Positions 18,889 to 58,248 of a stretch of DNA of 64,000 nt are shown piece after piece; within the stretch, counting starts at the first letter, position 1; each line of letters begins with the position of its first letter. The stretch comes from a virus. Lineage: Duplodnaviria > Caudoviricetes. The position numbers were made by a program, and so were the translations under genes. The notes under the pieces are model-generated. The model was not told the origin of the DNA, did not search any database, and worked only from the letters and a program-made list of their open reading frames with translations. The DNA is taken from positions 19,143-83,142 of the IMG/VR virus record IMGVR_UViG_3300013281_000008; one strand, written 5' to 3'.

Positions 18889-20445
18889 ATGTCTAAAATT
18901 AATCTAAAAGAAGGAAATTCACCATCAACACCCCCAAGTGGCGAAGTCTCCGTGTATGTAAAAACTGATAAAGAACTTTATATTAAAAATGATTTAGGTG
19001 TTGAAACACCACTCACTAATGATAACGAAGTTAAGGTTTCGGCGACTGATACAACTTCTGATTTCTTAAATCCTAAAATTACAGCAGGAACGGGCATCAG
19101 TAAAACAATATTAAATCCAGCAGCTAATGAACAATTAGAATTAAGTGTAAACGAAGCAGCTCTCACATTAGATAATATTGGAGGCACTTTAAGTATTTCT
19201 AAAGGCGGTACTGGTCAAACGTCGGCGCTTGCTGCTTTTGACGCTCTTTCTCCTTTAACAACTAAAGGTGATATTTTATCTAGAGACAATACTAATAATG
19301 TTCGAGTTCCAGTTGGTACAGATGGGCAGATTTTAACAGCAGATAGCGGACAACCATCTGGACTTAATTGGACAACCGCAGGAGCCGGAAGCGTAACTTC
19401 TGTCGCAATGACTGTTCCTTCTTTTCTCTCAGTTGCTGGAAGTCCTATTACATCCAGTGGAACTTTAGCTGTTTCTCTCGTTTCTCAAACCCAAAATCTA
19501 GTATTTGCTTCCCCAGATGGCGCTCCTGGAAATCCAACATTTAGAGCCCTTCTTAATAATGATCTTCCTACTGTTTCAATAGCTAAGGGTGGTACTGGTC
19601 AGACGACTCAGACGGCTGCATTTAATGCGCTTTCACCAAACACAACAAAGGGAGATGTAATTGTTCATAATGGAACGAATAATGTTCGACAGGCCGTTGG
19701 TACAAATGGGCAAGTATTAGTTGCTGATAGTACTCAAACAACCGGAGTGAGATGGGGAAATTCTTTTGAACCAGCTAATGAAACTAGCTTTTTTGACGAA
19801 TTCATTGGTTCAGATCAAGTAAGTTTAGCAGCTGCTGCTAGAGAGATTTCTAGAGGATGGCGAGTAGACAATCCAGGTGGAGCGTCAACGACTAATTATT
19901 CCTCAGCAGTTTTAAGTGGAAATCATCCTGGTATAATTATTGTTACTAGTGGTTCTGCGGGTGGAAATTATTGTAATCTTTCTTTAGCAAGCAACGTTGC
20001 ATTGGTATTAGGTGGTGGTCAAATACAATTTGAATTTCTTATTCATATACCAGTTCTTTCTAACGCAACTAATGAATACATTCAACGTTGGGGGTTTGGC
20101 GATACATCAGGTGCAAATCAAGCAAATGGTGTTTATTTTTCATACGATAGAGCATCTAGTGGTAACTTCTTTAGAATTGTTACAGCAAATGCTAGCACTA
20201 GAACAACAACTGTTACAGGGACTGCGGTTGCTGCGGGGACTTGGTATAAATTAAGAGCAGTTATTAACGCAGCTGGAACTAGCGTTGAATATTTTATTAA
20301 TGGGATATCTGTTGGTACAATCGCGACAAATATTCCAACACTTCCAATAAGTCCATTTATGCATTCTATTAGAAGTGCTGGCGGTCCGAGTTCGTTTTAT
20401 ATTGATTATTTTTATATGCAACAAACATTTACAACTCCGAGATAA
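18889..20445 (+). CDS. Tail fibre/spike-like protein with a C-terminal lectin-like domain
   Basis: Duplicated ISKGGTGQT...AAFxALSPxTTKGD...RxxVGTxGQ module; Gly/Thr/Ser-rich; beta-rich C-terminus. Confidence 0.75.
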   Translation: MSKINLKEGNSPSTPPSGEVSVYVKTDKELYIKNDLGVETPLTNDNEVKVSATDTTSDFLNPKITAGTGISKTILNPAANEQLELSVNEAALTLDNIGGTLSISKGGTGQTSALAAFDALSPLTTKGDILSRDNTNNVRVPVGTDGQILTADSGQPSGLNWTTAGAGSVTSVAMTVPSFLSVAGSPITSSGTLAVSLVSQTQNLVFASPDGAPGNPTFRALLNNDLPTVSIAKGGTGQTTQTAAFNALSPNTTKGDVIVHNGTNNVRQAVGTNGQVLVADSTQTTGVRWGNSFEPANETSFFDEFIGSDQVSLAAAAREISRGWRVDNPGGASTTNYSSAVLSGNHPGIIIVTSGSAGGNYCNLSLASNVALVLGGGQIQFEFLIHIPVLSNATNEYIQRWGFGDTSGANQANGVYFSYDRASSGNFFRIVTANASTRTTTVTGTAVAAGTWYKLRAVINAAGTSVEYFINGISVGTIATNIPTLPISPFMHSIRSAGGPSSFYIDYFYMQQTFTTPR

Positions 20446-22752: not shown

Positions 22753-24265
22753 TGATGACATTGTATATCTTCAGCCGGAAGATAATGATGGGCAACCTGA
22801 AACGCCCATTCAATTAACTCCAGAAGGGGCTAGGGCTTATCTTTGGACAACTGGAAGCTTAGATTGGAAGCTTTATGATTCCCAAAAAGAGATATATAAC
22901 GTTTGGCGTGATTATACAGGGCAGAAGTTTATCCTTAACTGTTCAAGGCGTTTTGGCAAATCATTCATGTTGTGTTTAATCGCAATTGAATATGCACTTA
23001 AACACCCTAAAAGTCGTATTTGCTACGCAGCCCCCACGGCAAAGATGGTTAAGAAGATTATTGCTCCGATCTTCAAGGATATTCTTGAGGATTGTCCTAG
23101 AGAACTAAGACCGGTTTGGAAAGCTCAGGATCAAATCTACCTTTTTCATAACCAATCAGAAATCCATATAGCAGGTACTGACGCTGAACGCGCCGAAGCG
23201 CTTCGAGGTCAGTCTATGCATCTTGGTATTGTAGATGAAGCTGGGTTTATGAGCCAAATGGACTACGTGGTGTCTGACATTCTTATGCCCCAGACACTTA
23301 CAACGGATGGTAAAATCATTATCGCTTCCACTCCACCTAAAACACCGGCTCACGACTTCACCCAGTATGCCATTGACGCCGCCATACGTGGAAATTATAT
23401 CAAACGGACCATTTATGACAATCATACCTTGTCAAAAACACGTATAATTCGAACCATGATGGAAACTCAGCCTTCTTTAACTAAAGAACAGGCTGAAGAA
23501 TACTATATGCAACGCTCTGGGCCTAAAAACTCCACCTGGCTCAGAGAATATATGGCTGAATTTGTCACAGATGAAGCCTATTCTGTCATACCAGAGTTTA
23601 CTGAAGAATGGTCTAAGGAATTAGTCCAAGAATGTAATAAACCCCCATTTTTCGACTGTTATGTCAGTATGGACGTCGGATATAATGATTTTACCGCCGT
23701 TTTGTTTGGATATTGGGACTTTTTCGAAGCTAAGCTTATTATCGAAGACGAAATAGTCATGAATCGCATGACTTCTGCAACTTTAGCTAACGAAATTAAG
23801 AATAAAGAGCTATTCCTATGGAATGGTAAGAAACCATACGTTAGAGTCTCCGATACTGATCTAATTGTGCTCTCAGATCTCCAACGAACCCATGGAGTTA
23901 ATTTCGTCCCAACCCCCAAGGACAATAAAGAAGCGGCCATCAACAAAGTTCGTATGATGATTGCCGATAAGAAGATATTAATTAATCCACGATGTAAGAA
24001 TCTTATTAATCATCTTAAATTTGCAGTTTGGAATAAGCAAAAAACCCAGTTCGAACGGTCTGGAGACTATGGTCACTTTGACCTTGTGGATGCCCTTGTT
24101 TATATGGTGCGGAATATACAAACTAATAGAAATCCTGTCCCCCCTGGACATGGTTTAAATATAGCTACTCAGTTTGTTCCACCCCAAACCAAGAAATCTT
24201 ACTCAGAAATCCAGATGGGTAAGCTTTTAAATTTAAAGAAGTATTTCAAAGACTGGAATAAATAA
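22742..24265 (+). CDS. terL: Terminase large subunit
   Basis: SRRFGKS Walker A, LRGQSMHLGIVDEAG Walker B, ASTP coupling motif, MDVGYND and HFDLVDAL nuclease aspartates. Confidence 0.93.
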   Translation: MSNNDDIVYLQPEDNDGQPETPIQLTPEGARAYLWTTGSLDWKLYDSQKEIYNVWRDYTGQKFILNCSRRFGKSFMLCLIAIEYALKHPKSRICYAAPTAKMVKKIIAPIFKDILEDCPRELRPVWKAQDQIYLFHNQSEIHIAGTDAERAEALRGQSMHLGIVDEAGFMSQMDYVVSDILMPQTLTTDGKIIIASTPPKTPAHDFTQYAIDAAIRGNYIKRTIYDNHTLSKTRIIRTMMETQPSLTKEQAEEYYMQRSGPKNSTWLREYMAEFVTDEAYSVIPEFTEEWSKELVQECNKPPFFDCYVSMDVGYNDFTAVLFGYWDFFEAKLIIEDEIVMNRMTSATLANEIKNKELFLWNGKKPYVRVSDTDLIVLSDLQRTHGVNFVPTPKDNKEAAINKVRMMIADKKILINPRCKNLINHLKFAVWNKQKTQFERSGDYGHFDLVDALVYMVRNIQTNRNPVPPGHGLNIATQFVPPQTKKSYSEIQMGKLLNLKKYFKDWNK

Positions 24266-28862: not shown

Positions 28863-29819
28863 ATGTCAGACACTCAAACCCCCGCTCCACAGGAATCTGT
28901 TGGAGAAATTGCAAATCAACAAGCCAATGAAGGTTCTATTACAGAAGCCGTTTCCGAGGCGACAACCCCGGCGCAGAACGCTGTTTCCCAACTTCAAGAA
29001 AGTGGAGTTGATGTAAAAGAATCTGCAAACTCAACGCCTGAAAATAAGAAATACAAAGTTAAGATCGATGGTAAAGAAGTAGAAGTTACGGAAGATGAAC
29101 TTCTAAAGGGTTACCAAAGTTCTAAATCGGCAAGCAAACGCTTCAATGAAGCTGCTAAAATGCGTAAAGAAGCCGATCAGCTTATTGAGTTTATGAAGAC
29201 TCAACCTGTTCAAGTTATTGAACAACTTGGTCATAATTTCCGAGAAATCGCTGAACAATACTTAATTCAAAAGCTTGAAGAAGAAAGCATGGACCCTAAA
29301 GATCGCGAACTTCTAGATGCTAAGCGTAAGCTTCAAGAATATGAAGAACGAGAAAAACAACTTGCCCAACAACGTGAACAAGAAGAATACGCTAAAATGA
29401 AGTCTTCTTATGAAGAGCAAATTGATACTCAAATCTCTGATACTCTTCAAAAATCAGGCCTCCCCAAGACTCCCTACACAGTTAAAAGAATGGCTCAATA
29501 TCTTTCTCGTGCTCTTGAGAATAACCTAGAACTCGCACCAAACGATGTAGTTGAACTTGTTAGAAAAGACTACTACAACGATCTTACATCTTATCTTGGT
29601 GGATATGATGGAGATAAACTCCTGGAAGTAATGCCTAAAGACGTGGTTGAAAAGATCCGTAAGGCTGAACTAGCCAAGGTTAAAGCTAAAACTGCTCCTA
29701 CTCCTACGAAAGTAGAAGAAGTGGCTAAGCCTAAATCTGAAGATGCTGATAAGAAAAATAAGAAGAAAATGAGCATGGCTTCTTTTCGTGAATGGGCAGA
29801 TAAAGCGTCAAGAGAGTAG
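28863..29819 (+). CDS. Capsid scaffolding protein
   Basis: Acidic disordered N-terminus, KYKVKIDGKEVEVTEDELLKGYQ motif, coiled coil; lies before the capsid gene. Confidence 0.85.
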   Translation: MSDTQTPAPQESVGEIANQQANEGSITEAVSEATTPAQNAVSQLQESGVDVKESANSTPENKKYKVKIDGKEVEVTEDELLKGYQSSKSASKRFNEAAKMRKEADQLIEFMKTQPVQVIEQLGHNFREIAEQYLIQKLEEESMDPKDRELLDAKRKLQEYEEREKQLAQQREQEEYAKMKSSYEEQIDTQISDTLQKSGLPKTPYTVKRMAQYLSRALENNLELAPNDVVELVRKDYYNDLTSYLGGYDGDKLLEVMPKDVVEKIRKAELAKVKAKTAPTPTKVEEVAKPKSEDADKKNKKKMSMASFREWADKASRE

Positions 29820-29827
29820 TATTAAGA

Positions 29828-29857
29828 GGGGACAGATTAGTCTGTCCCCATTTTTTT
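29828..29857 (+). terminator. Rho-independent terminator
   Basis: GGGGACAGA-TTAG-TCTGTCCCC followed by a T7 run. Confidence 0.85.
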
Positions 29858-29859
29858 AT

Positions 29860-30428
29860 ATGAAACCATATGGAATTATCTATAAAGTTACTAATAAATC
29901 CAATGGAAAGGTCTACATCGGGCAGACTGTTCAAGGTCTGAAACAACGTAAAAACAAACATATTTATACTTCTAAACGACAGATAACAAATTTGCATTAC
30001 ATCATGCTATAAATAAATATGGAAAAGAAAGCTTTGATTTTGAGACTATTTGTTCTTGCTTTGACATTGATGAGCTAAATAAACAAGAACAACATTTTAT
30101 CGAACAATACAAATGTATCGCACCCAATGGCTATAACTTGAAAAATGGTGGCTATAATAAAAAGTATAGTGAAACGACCATTCGTAAAATGAAAGAAATA
30201 GCGAGTAAACGAGGCCCTAATCATCCATCGACTTTAGCTCTTTTAGATAGAAGTAAAAACTATCAAAAACAAAAAGGTTGTATTGGTAATGTTAGACGTT
30301 TTATTCAAGCCGAAGATGGGACGATTTATACAGGTGTTACTGAATTAGCTAAAAAGCTCGACACAACGGCTTCTTCAATACATAATTCTATTAAAAAAAG
30401 AGGCAAATATATTTGCCTATTATTTTAA
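29860..30428 (+). pseudogene. GIY-YIG homing endonuclease, frameshifted near 29970-29980
   Basis: YGIIYKVTNKSNGKVYIGQT in frame 1 stops at 30012; the domain continues in another frame (ALHHAINKYGKESF...ELNKQEQHFIEQY...GYNLKNGG). Confidence 0.8.
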
Positions 30429-32270: not shown

Positions 32271-33707
32271 ATGAAAGAATGTTCTAAATGCAAGCAGATT
32301 TTAGCTTTTGAAGAGTTTGCTAAATGTAAAGCCAATAGAGATGGTTATCAATATCAATGTCGAAAGTGTAAGAAACTTGCAGTTGAACAAATTAAACTCC
32401 TTCACGTAGATGGAAATTATAGTGACAATATAAGTAATAAGCAATGTTCTAGATGTCACAATCTTCTTCCTAAAGACGCTTTTACAAAGAATTCATGTCA
32501 GAAAGACGGCCTTCATAATGAATGTAAAGGATGTATGTCATTAAGGGCTAAATTACGTTATTCAAATAACAAGGATAAAATTAAAGCCCAACAGGCTAAT
32601 TATTATAAGAATAATAAACATGTTAAAAATACTTATTGGCAAAAACGAATAAAAACCGATGTACAATTTAAGATAAAAGTGGGATTAAGAAGACGTCTAA
32701 AATTAGCATTAACCAATAATTATAAGAAAGGGATGGTTATAAAGAATCTTGGCTGTAGTGTTGAGGAGTTTAAGTGCTATTTCGAGTCTAAGTTTCAACC
32801 CGGAATGACTTGGAAAGACTTTCTTAAAGGTAAAATACATGTTGACCATATTAAACCATTATCTGCTTTTAATTTGACAGATCCTGAACAAATTAAAGAA
32901 GCTTGTCATTATACTAATTTACAACCTCTTTGGTGTGAAGATAACATTAAAAAGGGTTCGAAGTATATTAATACATTCTATGAAGATGATAATTTAAAAG
33001 TAAATATTATACCCATATCTGTTTTAGTTGGGATGGATAGACATCATTTATCTAAAGAGGTTCAAAAAACGAATAAAAGGCTTGTACAATTCTTTGATTT
33101 TGAATTGGTAGAAAGAGGATTTCAAATAACAAGCTTTGTAAAATCGGCTAGTGGACAAAATAAAAATAAGGTATTTGCTAGAAAATGTGAAATTAAAGAA
33201 GTTTCCCAAGACGATGCTAAAGGCTTTTTAGATAAATATCATATTCTAGGTGGCTCATTAAATTTTAGATTAGCATTGGGTTTATTCCATAAAGATGATT
33301 TAATAGCTTTAGCGACATTTGGAGCACACCATAGGAATCATACTAAGAATGTATTAAGTCGTTTTGTGACTAAAATAGACTGGAATGTAATAGGTGGCTT
33401 GTCGCGACTTTCTAAAGCTGCTTATGATCAATTGGGTGAGATTTATACGTGGATTGATTTACGCATGTCAAATGGGGATAATTGGATTAAAGCCGGTTGG
33501 ATATTCGAAGAAAAGCTGAATCCCGACTATTTTTATTATAATTTCAAAGCCAATAAAGTAATTAAAAAGCAATCTCGACAAAAATCCCTGGTAAACACCC
33601 CAGACCATATGACTGAATTTGAACACGCCAAGCGAGATGGTCTAATCCGTATATTTGATTGTGGTAAGATACGGTTAAAGTTTGACCCCAAAAAAGAATC
33701 TAAATAA
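32271..33707 (+). CDS. Free-standing composite homing endonuclease: CxxC Zn modules + HNH + Hef-like C-terminal domain
   Basis: CSKC..CRKC and CSRC..CKGC; HVDHIKP...HYTNLQPLWCEDNIKKG; FARKCEIKE...FLDKYHILG...SRFVTK...GGLSRL...RIFDCG. Confidence 0.8.
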   Translation: MKECSKCKQILAFEEFAKCKANRDGYQYQCRKCKKLAVEQIKLLHVDGNYSDNISNKQCSRCHNLLPKDAFTKNSCQKDGLHNECKGCMSLRAKLRYSNNKDKIKAQQANYYKNNKHVKNTYWQKRIKTDVQFKIKVGLRRRLKLALTNNYKKGMVIKNLGCSVEEFKCYFESKFQPGMTWKDFLKGKIHVDHIKPLSAFNLTDPEQIKEACHYTNLQPLWCEDNIKKGSKYINTFYEDDNLKVNIIPISVLVGMDRHHLSKEVQKTNKRLVQFFDFELVERGFQITSFVKSASGQNKNKVFARKCEIKEVSQDDAKGFLDKYHILGGSLNFRLALGLFHKDDLIALATFGAHHRNHTKNVLSRFVTKIDWNVIGGLSRLSKAAYDQLGEIYTWIDLRMSNGDNWIKAGWIFEEKLNPDYFYYNFKANKVIKKQSRQKSLVNTPDHMTEFEHAKRDGLIRIFDCGKIRLKFDPKKESK

Positions 33708-52862: not shown

Positions 52863-54560
52863 ATGCCTCTTACTCCTGAAGAAGAAAGAGAACTCGCTGA
52901 ACTGGAAAAAGAATACGGGGAATCTCCGTCTACTCCAGTTGGATTGTCTCCTGAAGAAGAAGCCGAGCTTGCTTCTTTAGAGCAAGAATTTGCAGCGCCT
53001 TCCGTTCTCTCTCAACCAAGTGAATCAACTATTGGAGATAAAGCAGCCGCTTTGGGATATGGGACAGCTCAAGGTATTACTTCTGGTTTTGGCGAAGAAG
53101 CAAGCGCTCTTGTTGGGGCGACATTACCCACACAAACCGATGTAGAAGCAGGAAGAAGCTACTGGGATAGGTATTCCACCATCCGAGATCAACTCCGCGC
53201 TAAGCAAAAGGAAGCTGAAGAAAAGGCTCCTGGTTATTATATGGGTGGAACTTTAGCCGGAAGTGCGGCCCAAACTTTAGTTCCCGGCCTTGGTGCTCTA
53301 GGTAAAGGAGCTGCCACTGGAAAATTAGCAACACAAGGAGCTATTTCTGGATTAGGCTATTCTGAAGGAGATTTAACAAAGGGTGAAGTTGGAGAAGCAG
53401 CTAAAGATGTGGCACTAGGTGCGACAATAGATGTCGCAACTGGAAAAGCATTTAGTGCCGCCGAAAAGGGTGTTTCTAAGTTACTCAAAGGAAAAGAATT
53501 AGCACCGGAATTGGCAGCTGCTGCAGAACAAAAAGCAGTTCAGGCTCTAAAGCCAACTCCCTCAGAATATGCTAAATTGGAAAGAACTGACCAAGTTCAA
53601 AAGCTCGGACGGGAATTACTCGATCAAAAGGTCACTGGTCCATTTTCTTCTGTTAAAAAGATGGCGGAACGACTTGATGAAATTAAAGAAAAGGCCGGTT
53701 CTAAAATCGGTGAATTTGTTGATACGTTTGATGAATTATCTAAATCATCTCCCGATACTATATCTAAAGTAGATTACGATAAGATAATTAATGAAACTCG
53801 TGAACAAATTGCTCAATTAGAAAGAACCAATAAACAAGCAGCTAAAGCGGTCCAAGAAAAGCTAGATGAGCTTTTAGAATATGGACCAAAACAAACTGAT
53901 TTTGTCGGTGGAACTAAGACGGCTGATTTAGCTAAAGTTCCAGAACCTAGAACTTTAAATGAATTAAAATCATTTAAACAAGGTATTGCAGATAAAGCGT
54001 ACGTTGAGGGCAATATAAGCGGTCGTGATGTTAAGAACGCTTTAAGAGATTTCGAACGTCGAATTGACGATGAAATAGTTAGCACTATTGAAAGAAGTAA
54101 TATCGGCACTCGTCCAGAATTCCAAGAAGCTAAGCGTAATTATACATTTGCTAAAAGATTAGAGAAGATTGCGGATCGTGCTTCTGCTAAAGATGAGCTT
54201 TCTGCCGCCATTAGCGTTCCAGAGGCTCAAGCCATCGCCGCCGGAATGGTAACCGGATCTCCGAGTATTCCACTTGTATTTGCAGCTAAACGCGGTGTAA
54301 AAGAATTCGGAAAACAAATTCAAGCCACGACTTTAGATAAGCTATCTCGATTGGCTTCTAAAACGCCAGAACGTCTCGGTAGATGGGCAGATACGTTGTC
54401 TAAAGCGACCGAAAGAGGCCCGACTTCATTGGCTGCCACTAACTTTATTCTATCCCAAAAAGATGCTGAATATCGAGAATTCCTTAAACAACTGGAAGAA
54501 GAAAAGGACGAAATAGAGTTTACTGAACCTTCCGTTATTACGCCAAGGGAGAAACCCTAA
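52863..54560 (+). CDS. Internal virion/ejection protein
   Basis: GTAQGITSGFGEEASA, Gly/Ala-rich TM-like segments, then coiled coil. Confidence 0.65.
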   Translation: MPLTPEEERELAELEKEYGESPSTPVGLSPEEEAELASLEQEFAAPSVLSQPSESTIGDKAAALGYGTAQGITSGFGEEASALVGATLPTQTDVEAGRSYWDRYSTIRDQLRAKQKEAEEKAPGYYMGGTLAGSAAQTLVPGLGALGKGAATGKLATQGAISGLGYSEGDLTKGEVGEAAKDVALGATIDVATGKAFSAAEKGVSKLLKGKELAPELAAAAEQKAVQALKPTPSEYAKLERTDQVQKLGRELLDQKVTGPFSSVKKMAERLDEIKEKAGSKIGEFVDTFDELSKSSPDTISKVDYDKIINETREQIAQLERTNKQAAKAVQEKLDELLEYGPKQTDFVGGTKTADLAKVPEPRTLNELKSFKQGIADKAYVEGNISGRDVKNALRDFERRIDDEIVSTIERSNIGTRPEFQEAKRNYTFAKRLEKIADRASAKDELSAAISVPEAQAIAAGMVTGSPSIPLVFAAKRGVKEFGKQIQATTLDKLSRLASKTPERLGRWADTLSKATERGPTSLAATNFILSQKDAEYREFLKQLEEEKDEIEFTEPSVITPREKP

Positions 54561-55024
54561 TGAAAACTCATTTAGTCAAATTGGTTTCCTTTGGTGAAGA
54601 ATTATCTATGAATTCATTAAATGCTTATTTATTGAAATGTGCCGGGGTTATAGGGGTATTCCTCGCTCCCATTAAAATGGTATTATTTGCCGTTGGGTTC
54701 CTTATTGTGGCAGATTTCATTTCTGGGGTTTGGGCCGCTAAACGACGCGGTGAGAAGATTACATCTAATGGGTTTAGACATACCGTCACTAAGATGTTTG
54801 CATACCAAGGTACTATAATTACCGCGTTCGTTGTAGAATCTTTCTTACTTCCTGACGTGCCTTTTGTTAAGATAGTATCAGCGATGATCGGTTTAACTGA
54901 AGTCAAGTCTTTCTTTGAAAACATGAATTCCATTGTCGGACTAGATGTATGGTCCGAACTTCTCAAAAAAGTTCACGGTAATAAAACCTTTATTCGAAAA
55001 AAGAGTAGAAGGAGATCTAAATAA
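54560..55024 (+). CDS. Holin (phage holin family 4-like)
   Basis: FLIVADFISGVWAAKRRGEKITSNGFRHTVTK...E.KS..EN motif, TM segments, basic tail. Confidence 0.8.
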   Translation: MKTHLVKLVSFGEELSMNSLNAYLLKCAGVIGVFLAPIKMVLFAVGFLIVADFISGVWAAKRRGEKITSNGFRHTVTKMFAYQGTIITAFVVESFLLPDVPFVKIVSAMIGLTEVKSFFENMNSIVGLDVWSELLKKVHGNKTFIRKKSRRRSK

Positions 55025-55230
55025 TGCTTCCTAAACAACCAGTTAAAATGGGCATGATGAAGATCAAGCCTATCAAAAAAGATGATAAAGTCAAGGGTGT
55101 ACAAATTCAACAAGCTGAAATTGGTATTCAACCAGTTGGGGCTATAAAAGAACTTCCTGAAATGGCTAAGGCCATGCCAAAGCCAATGAAGCGTTTTGGT
55201 AAGGTTTTAAAGGTACTTAAGGGTAAGTAA
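55024..55230 (+). CDS. Small basic protein with C-terminal F-x-x-V-x-K-x-L helix (1)
   Basis: Ends KRFGKVLKVLKGK; TAATG-coupled. Confidence 0.7.
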   Translation: MLPKQPVKMGMMKIKPIKKDDKVKGVQIQQAEIGIQPVGAIKELPEMAKAMPKPMKRFGKVLKVLKGK

Positions 55231-55415
55231 TGAAACGTAAACGCCCAGGAATGGGCACTTCTCAAGGCGGTAAGACCGACGTGATTTCACCTGAAAGGGT
55301 GCAACCGCTTTCTTATCGTCCAAAGCCGGTGGATTCGGCCAGTAAAGGTCTTTTTGAGAAGAAAGGCCCAAAATGTCGCTTTAAGCAAATACTTAAGGCT
55401 TTAACTAAGGAATAA
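55230..55415 (+). CDS. Small basic protein with C-terminal F-x-x-I-x-K-x-L helix (2)
   Basis: Ends CRFKQILKALTKE; TAATG-coupled. Confidence 0.7.
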   Translation: MKRKRPGMGTSQGGKTDVISPERVQPLSYRPKPVDSASKGLFEKKGPKCRFKQILKALTKE

Positions 55416-55417
55416 TT

Positions 55418-55828
55418 ATGCTTATGATAAGTATCCCTGGGACAATTGAGCAACTGAATGATAATAGCTATAAAATTAATATAAAAGCTCTTCGACTTCA
55501 GGCGACAGTGAATAACTTAGATAACGTTGCTAAAACACTAGCTAAAACGCTCAAGAATGCCCTAGGTGAAGACTTTGGAGGTCTCCTGGTATCATACCGT
55601 CAACCTCGTGGTTTTCACGAAATAGAGGGCAATTTAAAGCATTTCTTTCTGGAATCTAGCAAGCATGAGATCCTTCTTAAGGAAGTTTTTAAAAATGAAC
55701 GTTTAATCGACGATAAAGACAAGGAAGATAAGAAAAAGAAGCTGGAAAACAGCCATTTGCATATGGCCTCATCCGAGGAAGTACTTGATTACGGCTATAT
55801 GCAAGATCCATCGGAATGGGGAGTATAA
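55418..55828 (+). CDS. hypothetical protein
   Basis: 136-aa ORF in the coupled string. Confidence 0.6.
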   Translation: MLMISIPGTIEQLNDNSYKINIKALRLQATVNNLDNVAKTLAKTLKNALGEDFGGLLVSYRQPRGFHEIEGNLKHFFLESSKHEILLKEVFKNERLIDDKDKEDKKKKLENSHLHMASSEEVLDYGYMQDPSEWGV

Positions 55829-56673
55829 TGAAAAAGCACTGGAAACGAATCGTTAAACAATATCATAAGAAAGCCAAAGAATGGCTTAATGCCCAAAAGT
55901 ACTATGCTTTGGCGTTTATAAAGCGTTCTATTAGTATGTTTACAGCATTGGTGACAGTGTTTAGTTTGGGCATCTTTGTAGTGGTTACTGCCTTAATGGC
56001 TGAGAATGTCCATACGACCTATATAGAATATAAAGTAGGTTCTAACACACTCTACATTAGATCGCCTGAAGATGCTAAAAAAAGAGGGTCTGGAACTGCT
56101 TTTGCGATGAAGACCCCCAGTGGTAAAGTGGTCACAGTAACAAACGCCCATATCTGTGAACTTGCTAATGATCAAGGGATAATTATGATCCAGGATAAAA
56201 AGCACACTGGACGACTTATTCCTAAGCGAGTAGTGGAAGTTTATCCAGATAATGACCTTTGTATTGTAGAAGGCATGGTTGGATATGATGGGTTAGAATT
56301 GGGAGATGAAGTTAAAATAGGCCAAAGAGTCTGGGCACTTGGCTATCCTCTTGGAGAAGGACTTAATGTCGCAAGGGGAAGAGTAAAGGGCTTCGCTACG
56401 ATTAAAATGATGGACGACACGCCTTTGGATAAATGCGAAGGGAAAAGATTTAAGAAAGAAAAGATCAATTTCTTCTTTATGGAAATCCAAGTTTGTACTA
56501 AACTATATGAAACGACCGCCACAGACTTAGAAATATACCCAGGAAATTCTGGAAGTGCTTTAGTTAATAATATGGGCAATGTAGTTGGCGTTGTATTTGC
56601 AGCTAATAGTTTAACTCATTGGGGCCATGCTGTAGTTTTAAAGGATCTCAAACAACTCTTAAGTGCATATTAA
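55828..56673 (+). CDS. Membrane-anchored trypsin-like (S1) serine protease
   Basis: Triad motifs VTNAHIC, DNDLC and PGNSGS; N-terminal TM helix; TAATG start at 55828. Confidence 0.88.
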   Translation: MKKHWKRIVKQYHKKAKEWLNAQKYYALAFIKRSISMFTALVTVFSLGIFVVVTALMAENVHTTYIEYKVGSNTLYIRSPEDAKKRGSGTAFAMKTPSGKVVTVTNAHICELANDQGIIMIQDKKHTGRLIPKRVVEVYPDNDLCIVEGMVGYDGLELGDEVKIGQRVWALGYPLGEGLNVARGRVKGFATIKMMDDTPLDKCEGKRFKKEKINFFFMEIQVCTKLYETTATDLEIYPGNSGSALVNNMGNVVGVVFAANSLTHWGHAVVLKDLKQLLSAY

Positions 56674-56684
56674 ATAGGTGTAAT

Positions 56685-56828
56685 ATGGAAAAGAAGAAAG
56701 ACAAAAAACAAAACGTAGAAGCGGTAAGAGTCGGTGAAGGTGCTCTTCCTTATCTTCCTAGAGAAGAATCTAAGGAAAGCAAGAAAAGCCGATTTGCTCG
56801 TATTCGTAAACATCTCAGCGAGAAATAA
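56685..56828 (+). CDS. Small basic protein with C-terminal helix motif (3), 47 aa
   Basis: SD AGGTG + ATG 56685; ends SRFARIRKHLSEK. Confidence 0.7.
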   Translation: MEKKKDKKQNVEAVRVGEGALPYLPREESKESKKSRFARIRKHLSEK

Positions 56829-56830
56829 TC

Positions 56831-57025
56831 ATGGCGGATAAAGACAAAAAGAAAGATAAGAAGTTCCTTCGACCGGATTATGCAGTCATCGAACCTGTTG
56901 ATATTTTTGATGAAGTTGATTATCAAAAGGATAAGAAAGAATACGAAAAGCATAAAAATAAGCGGGACAAACAAAAGTCTCTGTTTAAGAATATTATGAA
57001 AAGCATTTCTGGAGACGATGAATAA
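56831..57025 (+). CDS. Small charged protein with C-terminal helix motif (4)
   Basis: Ends SLFKNIMKSISGDDE. Confidence 0.7.
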   Translation: MADKDKKKDKKFLRPDYAVIEPVDIFDEVDYQKDKKEYEKHKNKRDKQKSLFKNIMKSISGDDE

Positions 57026-57198
57026 TGCCGTACGTTTCGGACGCCCAGCGAAGGTTTTTCAATAGTAAAGGTGCTAAAAAAGCTGGCATTTCTCTTCCTA
57101 CCGTTAAAGAGTTTAACGAGGCGTCTAAAGGAATGGATCTTCCTGAACGTAAAAGCAAGAAGTTTAGCAAAATTAAGAAAACAATAAGCAAGAGCTAA
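57025..57198 (+). CDS. Small basic protein with C-terminal helix motif (5), 57 aa (not in the ORF track)
   Basis: MPYVSDAQRRFFNSKG...LPERKSKKFSKIKKTISKS*; TAATG-coupled. Confidence 0.7.
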   Translation: MPYVSDAQRRFFNSKGAKKAGISLPTVKEFNEASKGMDLPERKSKKFSKIKKTISKS

Positions 57199-57199
57199 T

Positions 57200-57355
57200 A
57201 TGGACGCCCCTGTTTCAACAATGGATGTCACACCTATTCTGAAGGAAATTTATGCTGGACGTTCTATTAAGCATCCTAAAAAAGTTGCTGGGAAACAATT
57301 CAAACGTATCCGAAAACAACTCAAAGGAAGTAAGTCTTCCTATTCAAAAGAGTAA
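57200..57355 (+). CDS. Small basic protein with helix motif (6), 51 aa (not in the ORF track)
   Basis: MDAPVSTMDVTPILKEIYAGRSIKHPKKVAGKQFKRIRKQLKGSKSSYSKE*; starts 1 nt after the previous stop. Confidence 0.6.
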   Translation: MDAPVSTMDVTPILKEIYAGRSIKHPKKVAGKQFKRIRKQLKGSKSSYSKE

Positions 57356-57359
57356 TCCT

Positions 57360-57767
57360 GTGGCTATTTCAATTGAGGCATATTTCGCAGATCCTAATAC
57401 TGGAAAAGATCGAAGAGATCAATATCCCGAAGATTATAATAATGGCATTTTAGCCAATGCTAACGTTCTTCTTTCTAAAGTTAATGCACTTCTAACTGAT
57501 TTGGGTATAATTGCAGTTCAAGTAAGCTCGGGGTGGAGACCGCCATCAGTAAATGTAGCAGCAGGTGGTGCTAAAAAGTCAGCTCATTGTACTGGAGAAG
57601 CTTGTGATTTGTCGGATAGATCTGGTCAATTAAAGAAACAGTTACAAGAGAAGCTACATTTGCTTGAGAAACATGATCTTTATATGGAAGACCCCCAATT
57701 TTGTCCAACCTGGGTTCATCTTCAATCAAGAAAGACCAAATCAGGCAATCGCGTTTTTAAACCGTAG
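57360..57767 (+). CDS. Endolysin, peptidase M15 (Zn L-Ala-D-Glu/D-Ala-D-Ala type); start GTG 57360 or ATG 57252
   Basis: SSGWRP, SAHCTGEACDL and WVHLQ Zn-binding motifs. Confidence 0.85.
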   Translation: MAISIEAYFADPNTGKDRRDQYPEDYNNGILANANVLLSKVNALLTDLGIIAVQVSSGWRPPSVNVAAGGAKKSAHCTGEACDLSDRSGQLKKQLQEKLHLLEKHDLYMEDPQFCPTWVHLQSRKTKSGNRVFKP

Positions 57768-58248
57768 CTTTAACCAATATCTTACTAACTGTTTGTTGAC
57801 AAACCCCAAATATTTTTCCAATCTTTCTTTGACTATACCCCAACTCTGCCAACTTTTTTAATTCTGGTATTTGGTCCAACTTAATTTTCCCTAAACCAGT
57901 TTTTCTAGTCGCATGTAATCCGGTTTTAACCGCATGATCTCTATTTTCTTGATTTGTTACCCATTCTAAATTGGAAACATTATTATTCAATTTATTACCA
58001 TCTTTATGATTAATTTGAGGTTTATTTTCAAAATTATCTAAATAAGTCCAAGCAACTATTTGGTGTATGAAAACAGTTTTTTTCTTATTTGTTTTTGGGC
58101 ATTTCAAATTTGTTCTATAGTAGCCCTTCTTATTTTTATTAAAAGATCTTTTAATTGTTTTTTTAAGTAAACTTTGTAATGCGCCATAATTAGAAATTAA
58201 ATAATAATCTTCGTAGTCTTTTACTGGTTTAAAATATTCATCATCCAT
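57757..58248 (-). CDS. NUMOD4-HNH homing endonuclease with C-terminal HTH
   Basis: FKPVKDYEDYYLISNYG; IHQIVA...INHKDGNKLNNNVSNLEWVT..N..H; YSQRKIGKIFGV. Confidence 0.9.
   Translation of the reverse strand: MDDEYFKPVKDYEDYYLISNYGALQSLLKKTIKRSFNKNKKGYYRTNLKCPKTNKKKTVFIHQIVAWTYLDNFENKPQINHKDGNKLNNNVSNLEWVTNQENRDHAVKTGLHATRKTGLGKIKLDQIPELKKLAELGYSQRKIGKIFGVCQQTVSKILVKATV

Follow-up and report, generated by a model that had tools for sequence, protein, structure and literature searches.

The late-operon cassette and its tagged mini-proteins

The subject of this work is a short terminal motif, here called the tag, shared by small proteins that are encoded at the end of the late operon of an uncultured phage (Caudoviricetes; IMG/VR record IMGVR_UViG_3300013281_000008). 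The record is 83,142 bp long and complete according to CheckV. The stretch analysed, referred to as the window, comprises 64 kb of it (record positions 19,143 to 83,142), and coordinates given without a locus name are those of the window. A single plus-strand late operon extends from approximately 18.9 to 57.8 kb. It codes for terminase, portal, scaffold, coat, tail and fibre proteins and for several very large proteins, including one with a match to a family of internal virion proteins. At the 3'-end of the operon the gene order is holin, W1, W2, 136-aa protein, protease, W3, W4, W5, W6 and M15 endolysin (Table 1; aa, amino acids), where W1-W6 denote mini-proteins of 47-68 aa. TAATG overlaps were found at the holin/W1, W1/W2 and W4/W5 junctions. 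Most other junctions in the cassette are gaps of 1-11 nucleotides (nt); longer overlaps join the 136-aa gene to the protease gene (13 nt) and W6 to the endolysin gene (104 nt). An earlier inspection of the bare sequence (the original prediction) had described the mini-genes as translationally coupled and as clustering around a serine protease between holin and endolysin, and both statements were borne out, the former by these junctions and the latter by the family matches listed in Table 1. Promoter- and terminator-like sites were no more and no less frequent in the stretch than in shuffled sequence.

All six mini-open reading frames (mini-ORFs) end in the predicted motif, F..[IV].K.[LI], which lies 2-9 residues before the stop codon. 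In the six reading frames of the 64-kb window this strict pattern was counted 17 times, and six of the 17 occurrences are the C-termini of W1-W6. When the whole proteins were shuffled (20,000 times each), 99.4% of the trials gave no C-terminal match at all, and the maximum was one. Shuffling of the last 20 residues alone, a control that preserves the local lysine richness and that the original prediction had proposed, resulted in at most two matches as against the six observed. The tag is also the 11-residue segment with the strongest hydrophobic moment in each of the six mini-proteins (0.57-0.78). BLAST comparison of W1-W6 with the motif masked detected no similarity, in agreement with their description as otherwise unrelated. 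Synonymous codons vary freely among the six DNA copies of the tag, indicating selection on the peptide level. The shared motif on the six mini-proteins is real and far above chance.

The mini-proteins had also been described as lysine-rich and disordered-looking. This holds for the charge of five of them, which are strongly basic, but W4 is near-neutral and W5 contains a confidently predicted three-helix domain (see below). No hydrophobic segment or export signal was detected in W1-W6 by sequence scan. W2 is an orphan, without a homologue among 1.84 billion representative proteins.

Table 1. Genes of the 3'-terminal cassette of the late operon (window coordinates)
Feature	Position	Strand	Remarks
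Holin, 154 aa, two hydrophobic (transmembrane) segments	54560..55024	+	PF05105 E 5.3e-8; phrog_199 holin
Mini-protein W1, 68 aa, net charge +12	55024..55230	+	tag 55195-55218, 2 residues before stop
Mini-protein W2, 61 aa, net charge +11	55230..55415	+	tag 55380-55403
Conserved 136-aa protein, untagged	55418..55828	+	alignment A2; overlaps protease start by 13 nt
Trypsin-like serine protease, 285 aa	55816..56673	+	PF13365 E 5e-15; 58 homologues; alignment A1
Mini-protein W3, 47 aa, net charge +7, ATG start	56685..56828	+	tag 56793-56816
Mini-protein W4, 64 aa, net charge +2	56831..57025	+	tag 56984-57007; tagged orthologues in L009, L014, L020
Mini-protein W5, 57 aa, net charge +10	57025..57198	+	tag 57163-57186; phrog_16759-type N-terminal domain
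Mini-protein W6, 51 aa, net charge +9	57200..57355	+	tag 57299-57322
Endolysin, Peptidase_M15_3, last gene of the late operon	57252..57767	+	PF08291 E 1.8e-9; phrog_894; start site and ribosome-binding site checked

The tag in related phages

The protease has 58 metagenomic homologues. Alignment A1 comprises 24 of them and yielded two viral, 27 metagenomic and one relevant genome-bin locus. Loci of the same type, with a 136-aa protein, a protease, two to six mini-genes and an endolysin, are L002, L005-L007/L031, L008, L009, L010, L012-L014, L020/L021 and L022. The tag is retained in orthologues of W4, W5 and W6, as the original prediction required, in phages with a protease identity of approximately 50%. 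C-terminal tags of the relatives are located 0-12 residues from the end. Further mini-protein families in these phages carry the tag at the N-terminus, within the first 7-15 residues; the C-terminal position claimed for the tag thus applies to all six proteins of the window but not to the relatives as a whole. A relaxed terminal motif was present in 14 of 23 mini-ORFs of the relatives, compared to 0.46 +/- 0.67 in shuffles. The consensus derived from 22 instances consists of a basic residue, an aromatic one (20/22), any residue, K/R (19/22), I/L/V (22/22), K/R, K (14/22), an aromatic residue or His (15/22) and L/I/V (21/22), which can be written as [KR]-[FWY]-x-K-[ILV]-x-K-aromatic-[LIV].

Clustering of the tagged mini-proteins with the tag masked gave at least seven unrelated families plus singletons. 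As a control, 103 small basic ORFs were collected from late regions of 80 unrelated phages. The motif was found in 1.9% of these, which equals the shuffle expectation, and the median terminal amphipathicity was 0.46 as opposed to 0.63 for 29 mini-proteins of the module (Mann-Whitney p = 5e-8). The tag is modular, conserved and strongly amphipathic, and because control ORFs show the motif at shuffle rate and have less amphipathic termini, it is specific to this phage lineage. The unrelatedness of the families, the retention in orthologues, the absence from controls and the tail swaps described next support the view that a modular terminal tag is shared for reasons other than common descent.

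The family of W5 consists of 26 proteins with a conserved segment of 42 residues at the start. AlphaFold predicted this segment to form a three-helix domain (predicted local distance difference test, pLDDT, 82-90), and residues 40-55 of W5, the tag region, to be helical at low confidence and detached from the domain. The tails of the family vary: some are of the tag type, others end in R-G-K, and some proteins have neither. The second tail (K-R-A-L-x-K-I-R-G-K type) is shared by two unrelated families, that of W5 (alignment A4) and phrog_2423 (L009:5818-5973), which suggests that tails are exchanged between mini-genes.

Another mini-protein of the relatives (L022:565-738; loci L035-L114) belongs to a family of 634 proteins of 55-65 aa from at least 471 IMG/VR loci, with an invariant G-G-G-G-R-F start and a conserved I-G-R-K-K-Y-G core. 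Its genes usually lie among other small basic late genes, and they are sometimes fused into larger proteins (L055, L091). This L022 family has no match in Pfam or PHROG; sequence searches of the PDB with it and with W5 found no relatives, and a literature search on DUF3008 found nothing. The element F-x-x-L-x-x-x-L is an invariant part of its core, and the tag-like stretch is probably structural rather than a free tag. Both this core helix and the C-terminal helix of the protease itself fit the relaxed pattern, but were rejected as tags since they are structural parts of folded proteins.

These comparisons bear on the possibility that the tag has no common destination at all and is a leftover of tandem duplication, a favourable helix cap, or a nucleotide-level by-product at coupled junctions, related to ribosome-binding sites or to a stop-proximal pause of the nascent chain. 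The mini-genes are indeed in tandem and tightly coupled, their last three to four codons often encode the Shine-Dalgarno sequence of the next gene (AAGG, GGAG), which favours K, G and E, and the L022 family offers a case of F-x-x-L-x-x-x-L serving as a folded core element. However, the masked mini-proteins have no residual similarity, the synonymous codons of the six copies differ freely, and the motif is nearly absent from controls and shuffles. The hydrophobic positions are encoded 15-40 nt before the next start codon, too far upstream to be part of any ribosome-binding site. We consider an explanation of this kind highly improbable. Its specific forms were rejected one by one: recent duplication for lack of nucleotide or masked-protein similarity, a Shine-Dalgarno by-product because it accounts for the last three to four codons only, and a ribosome arrest peptide because of the N-terminal copies and the variable distance to the stop codon (0-12 residues).

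Candidate destinations of the tag

Among the possibilities raised by the original prediction a membrane-binding helix fits best. The reading that we favour, with a probability of about 45%, is that the tag serves as a membrane anchor, a cationic amphipathic helix lying in the plane of the membrane, which would hold the partly disordered, fast-evolving mini-proteins of the lysis cassette at the inner membrane and perhaps aid disruption of the envelope. In addition to the hydrophobic moment and the control comparison, this reading draws on the HeliQuest discriminant, which is 1.5-2.7 for the tags of W1-W6; the threshold for lipid-binding helices is 1.34 (PMC5322399). The anchors of Noc and MinD are terminal amphipathic helices followed by a variable spacer, and their binding requires membrane potential. 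The tag likewise occupies an extreme terminus, the C-terminus in the window and either end in the relatives, and it has a narrow hydrophobic face with aromatics, flanking lysines and then a variable spacer. Its amphipathicity is that of a targeting sequence of the MinD/FtsA/Noc type. The validated anchor of Bacillus subtilis MinD, KGMMAKIKSFFG, matches the register of the tag consensus (hydrophobic-x-K-I-K-x-aromatic-hydrophobic). With the anchors of MinD, FtsA, MreB and Noc the tag shares a terminal helix of 8-12 residues, a narrow aromatic-bearing hydrophobic face, Lys/Arg flanks and a variable spacer. It differs from them in being common to many unrelated phage mini-proteins encoded in a single cluster, in that membrane binding is a prediction here, and in that the mini-proteins have no known oligomerisation that would strengthen weak binding.

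Other proteins of the cassette are predicted to be built likewise. The C-terminal tail of the holin contains a tag-like W-x-x-L-x-K-x-V (approximately 54950-54973), the Lys-rich juxtamembrane tail of the protease forms a long amphipathic helix, and the endolysin has a hydrophobic/amphipathic N-terminal extension that is conserved in the relatives. According to the favoured reading the tag would park the mini-proteins on the anionic inner leaflet beside the holin and the protease anchor. Since the binding of such helices depends on the membrane potential, loss of the potential upon holin triggering would release the mini-proteins or allow them to pass to the periplasm. There the more cationic mini-proteins might contribute to rupture of the outer membrane; no recognisable spanin is encoded by this phage.

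A simple screen for lipoboxes and hydrophobic segments detected neither a lipobox nor a spanin-like ORF in the cassette or in the relatives bearing mini-proteins. When the entire 83-kb genome was scanned for lipoboxes, a single lipoprotein of 190 aa emerged, located far from the lysis genes and lacking a C-terminal transmembrane segment. This Gly/Ser-rich protein is encoded 18 kb before the window on the minus strand (G000:C1, approximately 1122-1694), and possibly functions in exclusion or at the surface rather than as a spanin. The protease-bearing loci L003/L017/L025, L019 and L015 contain lipoprotein ORFs, which in L003/L017/L025 and L019 form an overlapped spanin-like pair, and lack tagged mini-proteins.

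Approximately 15% of the phages of Gram-negative hosts have no spanin, and the only known substitute is the disruptin (bioRxiv 10.1101/515445). The screen used for disruptin candidates (<80 aa, net charge >= +4) is passed by five of the six mini-proteins (+7 to +12); W4 fails. Similarly to gp28 of phage phiKT (Holt et al., bioRxiv 10.1101/515445), the mini-proteins are small (47-68 aa versus 56 aa), highly cationic in five of six cases (phiKT gp28, +7) and free of an export signal, and their genes neighbour those of holin and endolysin in a lysis cassette, the phage being devoid of spanins according to a crude screen. Unlike gp28, which is one protein and helical over most of its length, they number six or more. 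Another trait of the disruptin is amphipathic helicity along most of the peptide, as in cathelicidins; here a single short terminal amphipathic helix was identified per mini-protein, the remaining parts appear disordered or, as in W5, separately folded, and one of the proteins is near-neutral.

Several observations weigh against membrane anchoring and the spanin-like role attached to it. The residue-specific conservation of the tag (aromatic at position 1, Lys at positions 3 and 6) would equally suit a protein-docking motif, and a single helix with three to four hydrophobic residues binds membranes weakly when alone. The helical part identified in each mini-protein is short, and W4 and its orthologues are near-neutral or acidic overall, unlike disruptins, which resemble antimicrobial peptides. 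No relative was found among cultured phages, whether the query was the 3.3-kb region, the protease, W5, the L022 mini-protein or either of two longer fused relatives. The spanin screen was simple and crude. The complementarity of spanins and mini-proteins may come from different phage lineages alone: few events on the protease tree account for the switch between the two, and G002, a record with spanins, belongs to an unrelated phage of 43 kb.

In a more far-reaching variant, which we regard as improbable, the tag would be a private sorting code: a terminal helix of 9-12 residues, grafted onto mini-proteins of at least ten unrelated families with rapid evolutionary turnover, would send them to one site, either the inner-membrane patch of holin and protease or the procapsid portal, and upon holin-induced loss of the potential they would be freed together and jointly replace spanins in opening the outer envelope.

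The protease has an N-terminal Lys-rich tail of 35-40 residues followed by a single strongly hydrophobic segment, a signal-anchor, and its distant homologue in L027 starts with a lipoprotein signal (lipobox) in place of the signal-anchor. From these two signals we infer that the catalytic domain is exported. In other phages, including G002, the protease gene sits between overlapped spanin-like genes and the endolysin gene, and the gene is probably part of the lysis module. Because the mini-proteins have no export signal, they would not meet the exported catalytic domain before the holin fires, which argues against a protease-docking tag, another option of the original prediction, as far as the catalytic domain is concerned, and also against a role of the protease in head maturation.

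Docking could still involve some other shared partner, such as the cytoplasmic tails of holin and protease, the 136-aa protein, the endolysin, or a host hub (a chaperone or membrane protease). In that case they would act as regulators or clients, for instance in lysis timing. Conservation at specific positions is characteristic of short linear motifs within disordered proteins, the parts outside the tag are conserved within families, as would suit adaptor-like proteins, and coupling fixes the stoichiometry with the cassette proteins. No candidate partner stands out, however. The tails of holin and protease are basic as well, which on electrostatic grounds disfavours their pairing with a basic tag, the protease domain occupies a different compartment, and the 136-aa protein was not seen beside the protease in L010 and L023, where the upstream flanks are short. 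Such docking is in our opinion unlikely.

The destination named first by the original prediction was the procapsid: the helix would dock the mini-proteins to portal, coat or scaffold, and they would be packaged as internal or ejected proteins. Short terminal peptides that are sufficient to bring unrelated proteins to a common destination are well known from the T4 capsid targeting sequence and from the cargo-loading peptides of encapsulins, and a short terminal peptide on otherwise unrelated proteins is also what is seen here. The tag is modular and occurs at either end of unrelated small proteins, and the late mini-genes come after putative internal-virion-protein genes. W5 weakly matches the N-terminus of phrog_25121, annotated as virion structural protein (E 0.002). 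In lambda and T3 the portal is the docking site of the terminase C-tail, and the large terminase of the window ends in a tag-like basic amphipathic L-x-x-L-K-K-Y-F five residues from its end (24200-24265). The terminase match is nevertheless within background, as 10 of 123 other ORFs have the wide terminal pattern, and the tail of the scaffold protein is unlike the tag. In T4 the signal is located at the N-terminus and cleaved off by the prohead protease, and both in T4 and in encapsulin systems the genes and cargoes are tied to those of the shell. In contrast, the tags are mostly C-terminal (in the window exclusively so) and lie in a lysis cassette between holin and endolysin, away from the head genes; none of the late proteins scanned was recognised as a head-maturation protease, and the sole protease is exported. 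Procapsid loading gained no supporting evidence and seems distinctly unlikely. On the question whether the tag accompanies head genes or lysis genes, G001 gave no terminase, portal or coat matches, and a terminase search of IMG/VR gave one distant match.

Some previously described signals were considered and rejected. A Tat signal was dismissed on account of the residue order, the lack of a hydrophobic region and the C-terminal position, and clamp-binding, FtsZ-tail-like and ClpX-degron motifs because their patterns do not fit.

In some Gram-negative systems the endolysin carries a C-terminal cationic amphipathic helix with a presumed action on membranes. The tag is likewise terminal, amphipathic and Lys-rich, and occurs on proteins of a lysis cassette. 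There, however, the helix is part of the enzyme, whereas here it is on separate mini-proteins, although the endolysin of the window has an N-terminal amphipathic extension of its own. Partial analogies exist with the terminal anchors, with the disruptin, and with the T4 capsid targeting sequence and the encapsulin peptides; a single tag on a battery of unrelated lysis-cassette mini-proteins with an exported protease was not found described in any paper or database family. If the interpretation is correct, such a battery beside an exported protease would represent a new lysis-cassette architecture. A portable peptide that directs many unrelated small phage proteins to one destination would offer a way into the function of many unannotated mini-genes of late operons, and could serve as a compact localisation tag. 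With its length of 12-15 residues the tag is readily testable.

Neighbouring genes

In the protease the catalytic residues H112, D147 and S245 and four invariant cysteines are conserved. The exported trypsin-like family, with its four invariant cysteines and long Lys-rich N-terminal tail, recurs in the lysis cassettes of unrelated phages (L003, L015, L019 and L027), and no description of a lysis role for it was found.

The 136-aa protein, whose gene is translationally coupled to that of the protease, belongs to a family of 105-136 aa (alignment A2). It consists of an N-terminal alpha/beta domain, a Lys-rich linker and an aromatic-Gly-aromatic motif near the C-terminus. The AlphaFold2 model had a mean pLDDT of 70.6 and gave weak, HicB-N-like fold matches. 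The protein could be a partner of the protease.

The last 104 nt of W6 (57252-57355) overlap the endolysin gene in another frame. An overlap of 83-107 nt with both frames conserved was seen in four divergent phages (the window, L002:7157-7263, L007:2031-2113 and L010:2689-2783), and W6 orthologues with the same overlap are present in L002, L006/L007 and L010. The constraints interleave: the N-terminal helix of the endolysin is encoded over the linker of W6, and the tag of W6 over an Asn/Ser-rich linker of the endolysin.

Directly upstream of a holin-like tail-anchored gene, a conserved basic mini-ORF of 39-44 aa was observed in four loci (L008:419-547, L013:3770-3889, L021:422-556 and L024:1459-1587); the window has no counterpart of it. 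Genes of the homing-endonuclease type occur in the head region of the late operon, namely a GIY-YIG-like remnant between scaffold and coat (29788-30428) and a 478-aa HNH/endonuclease VII protein downstream of the coat gene (32271-33707). The endolysin gene is directly followed by an HNH gene on the minus strand (57757-58248).

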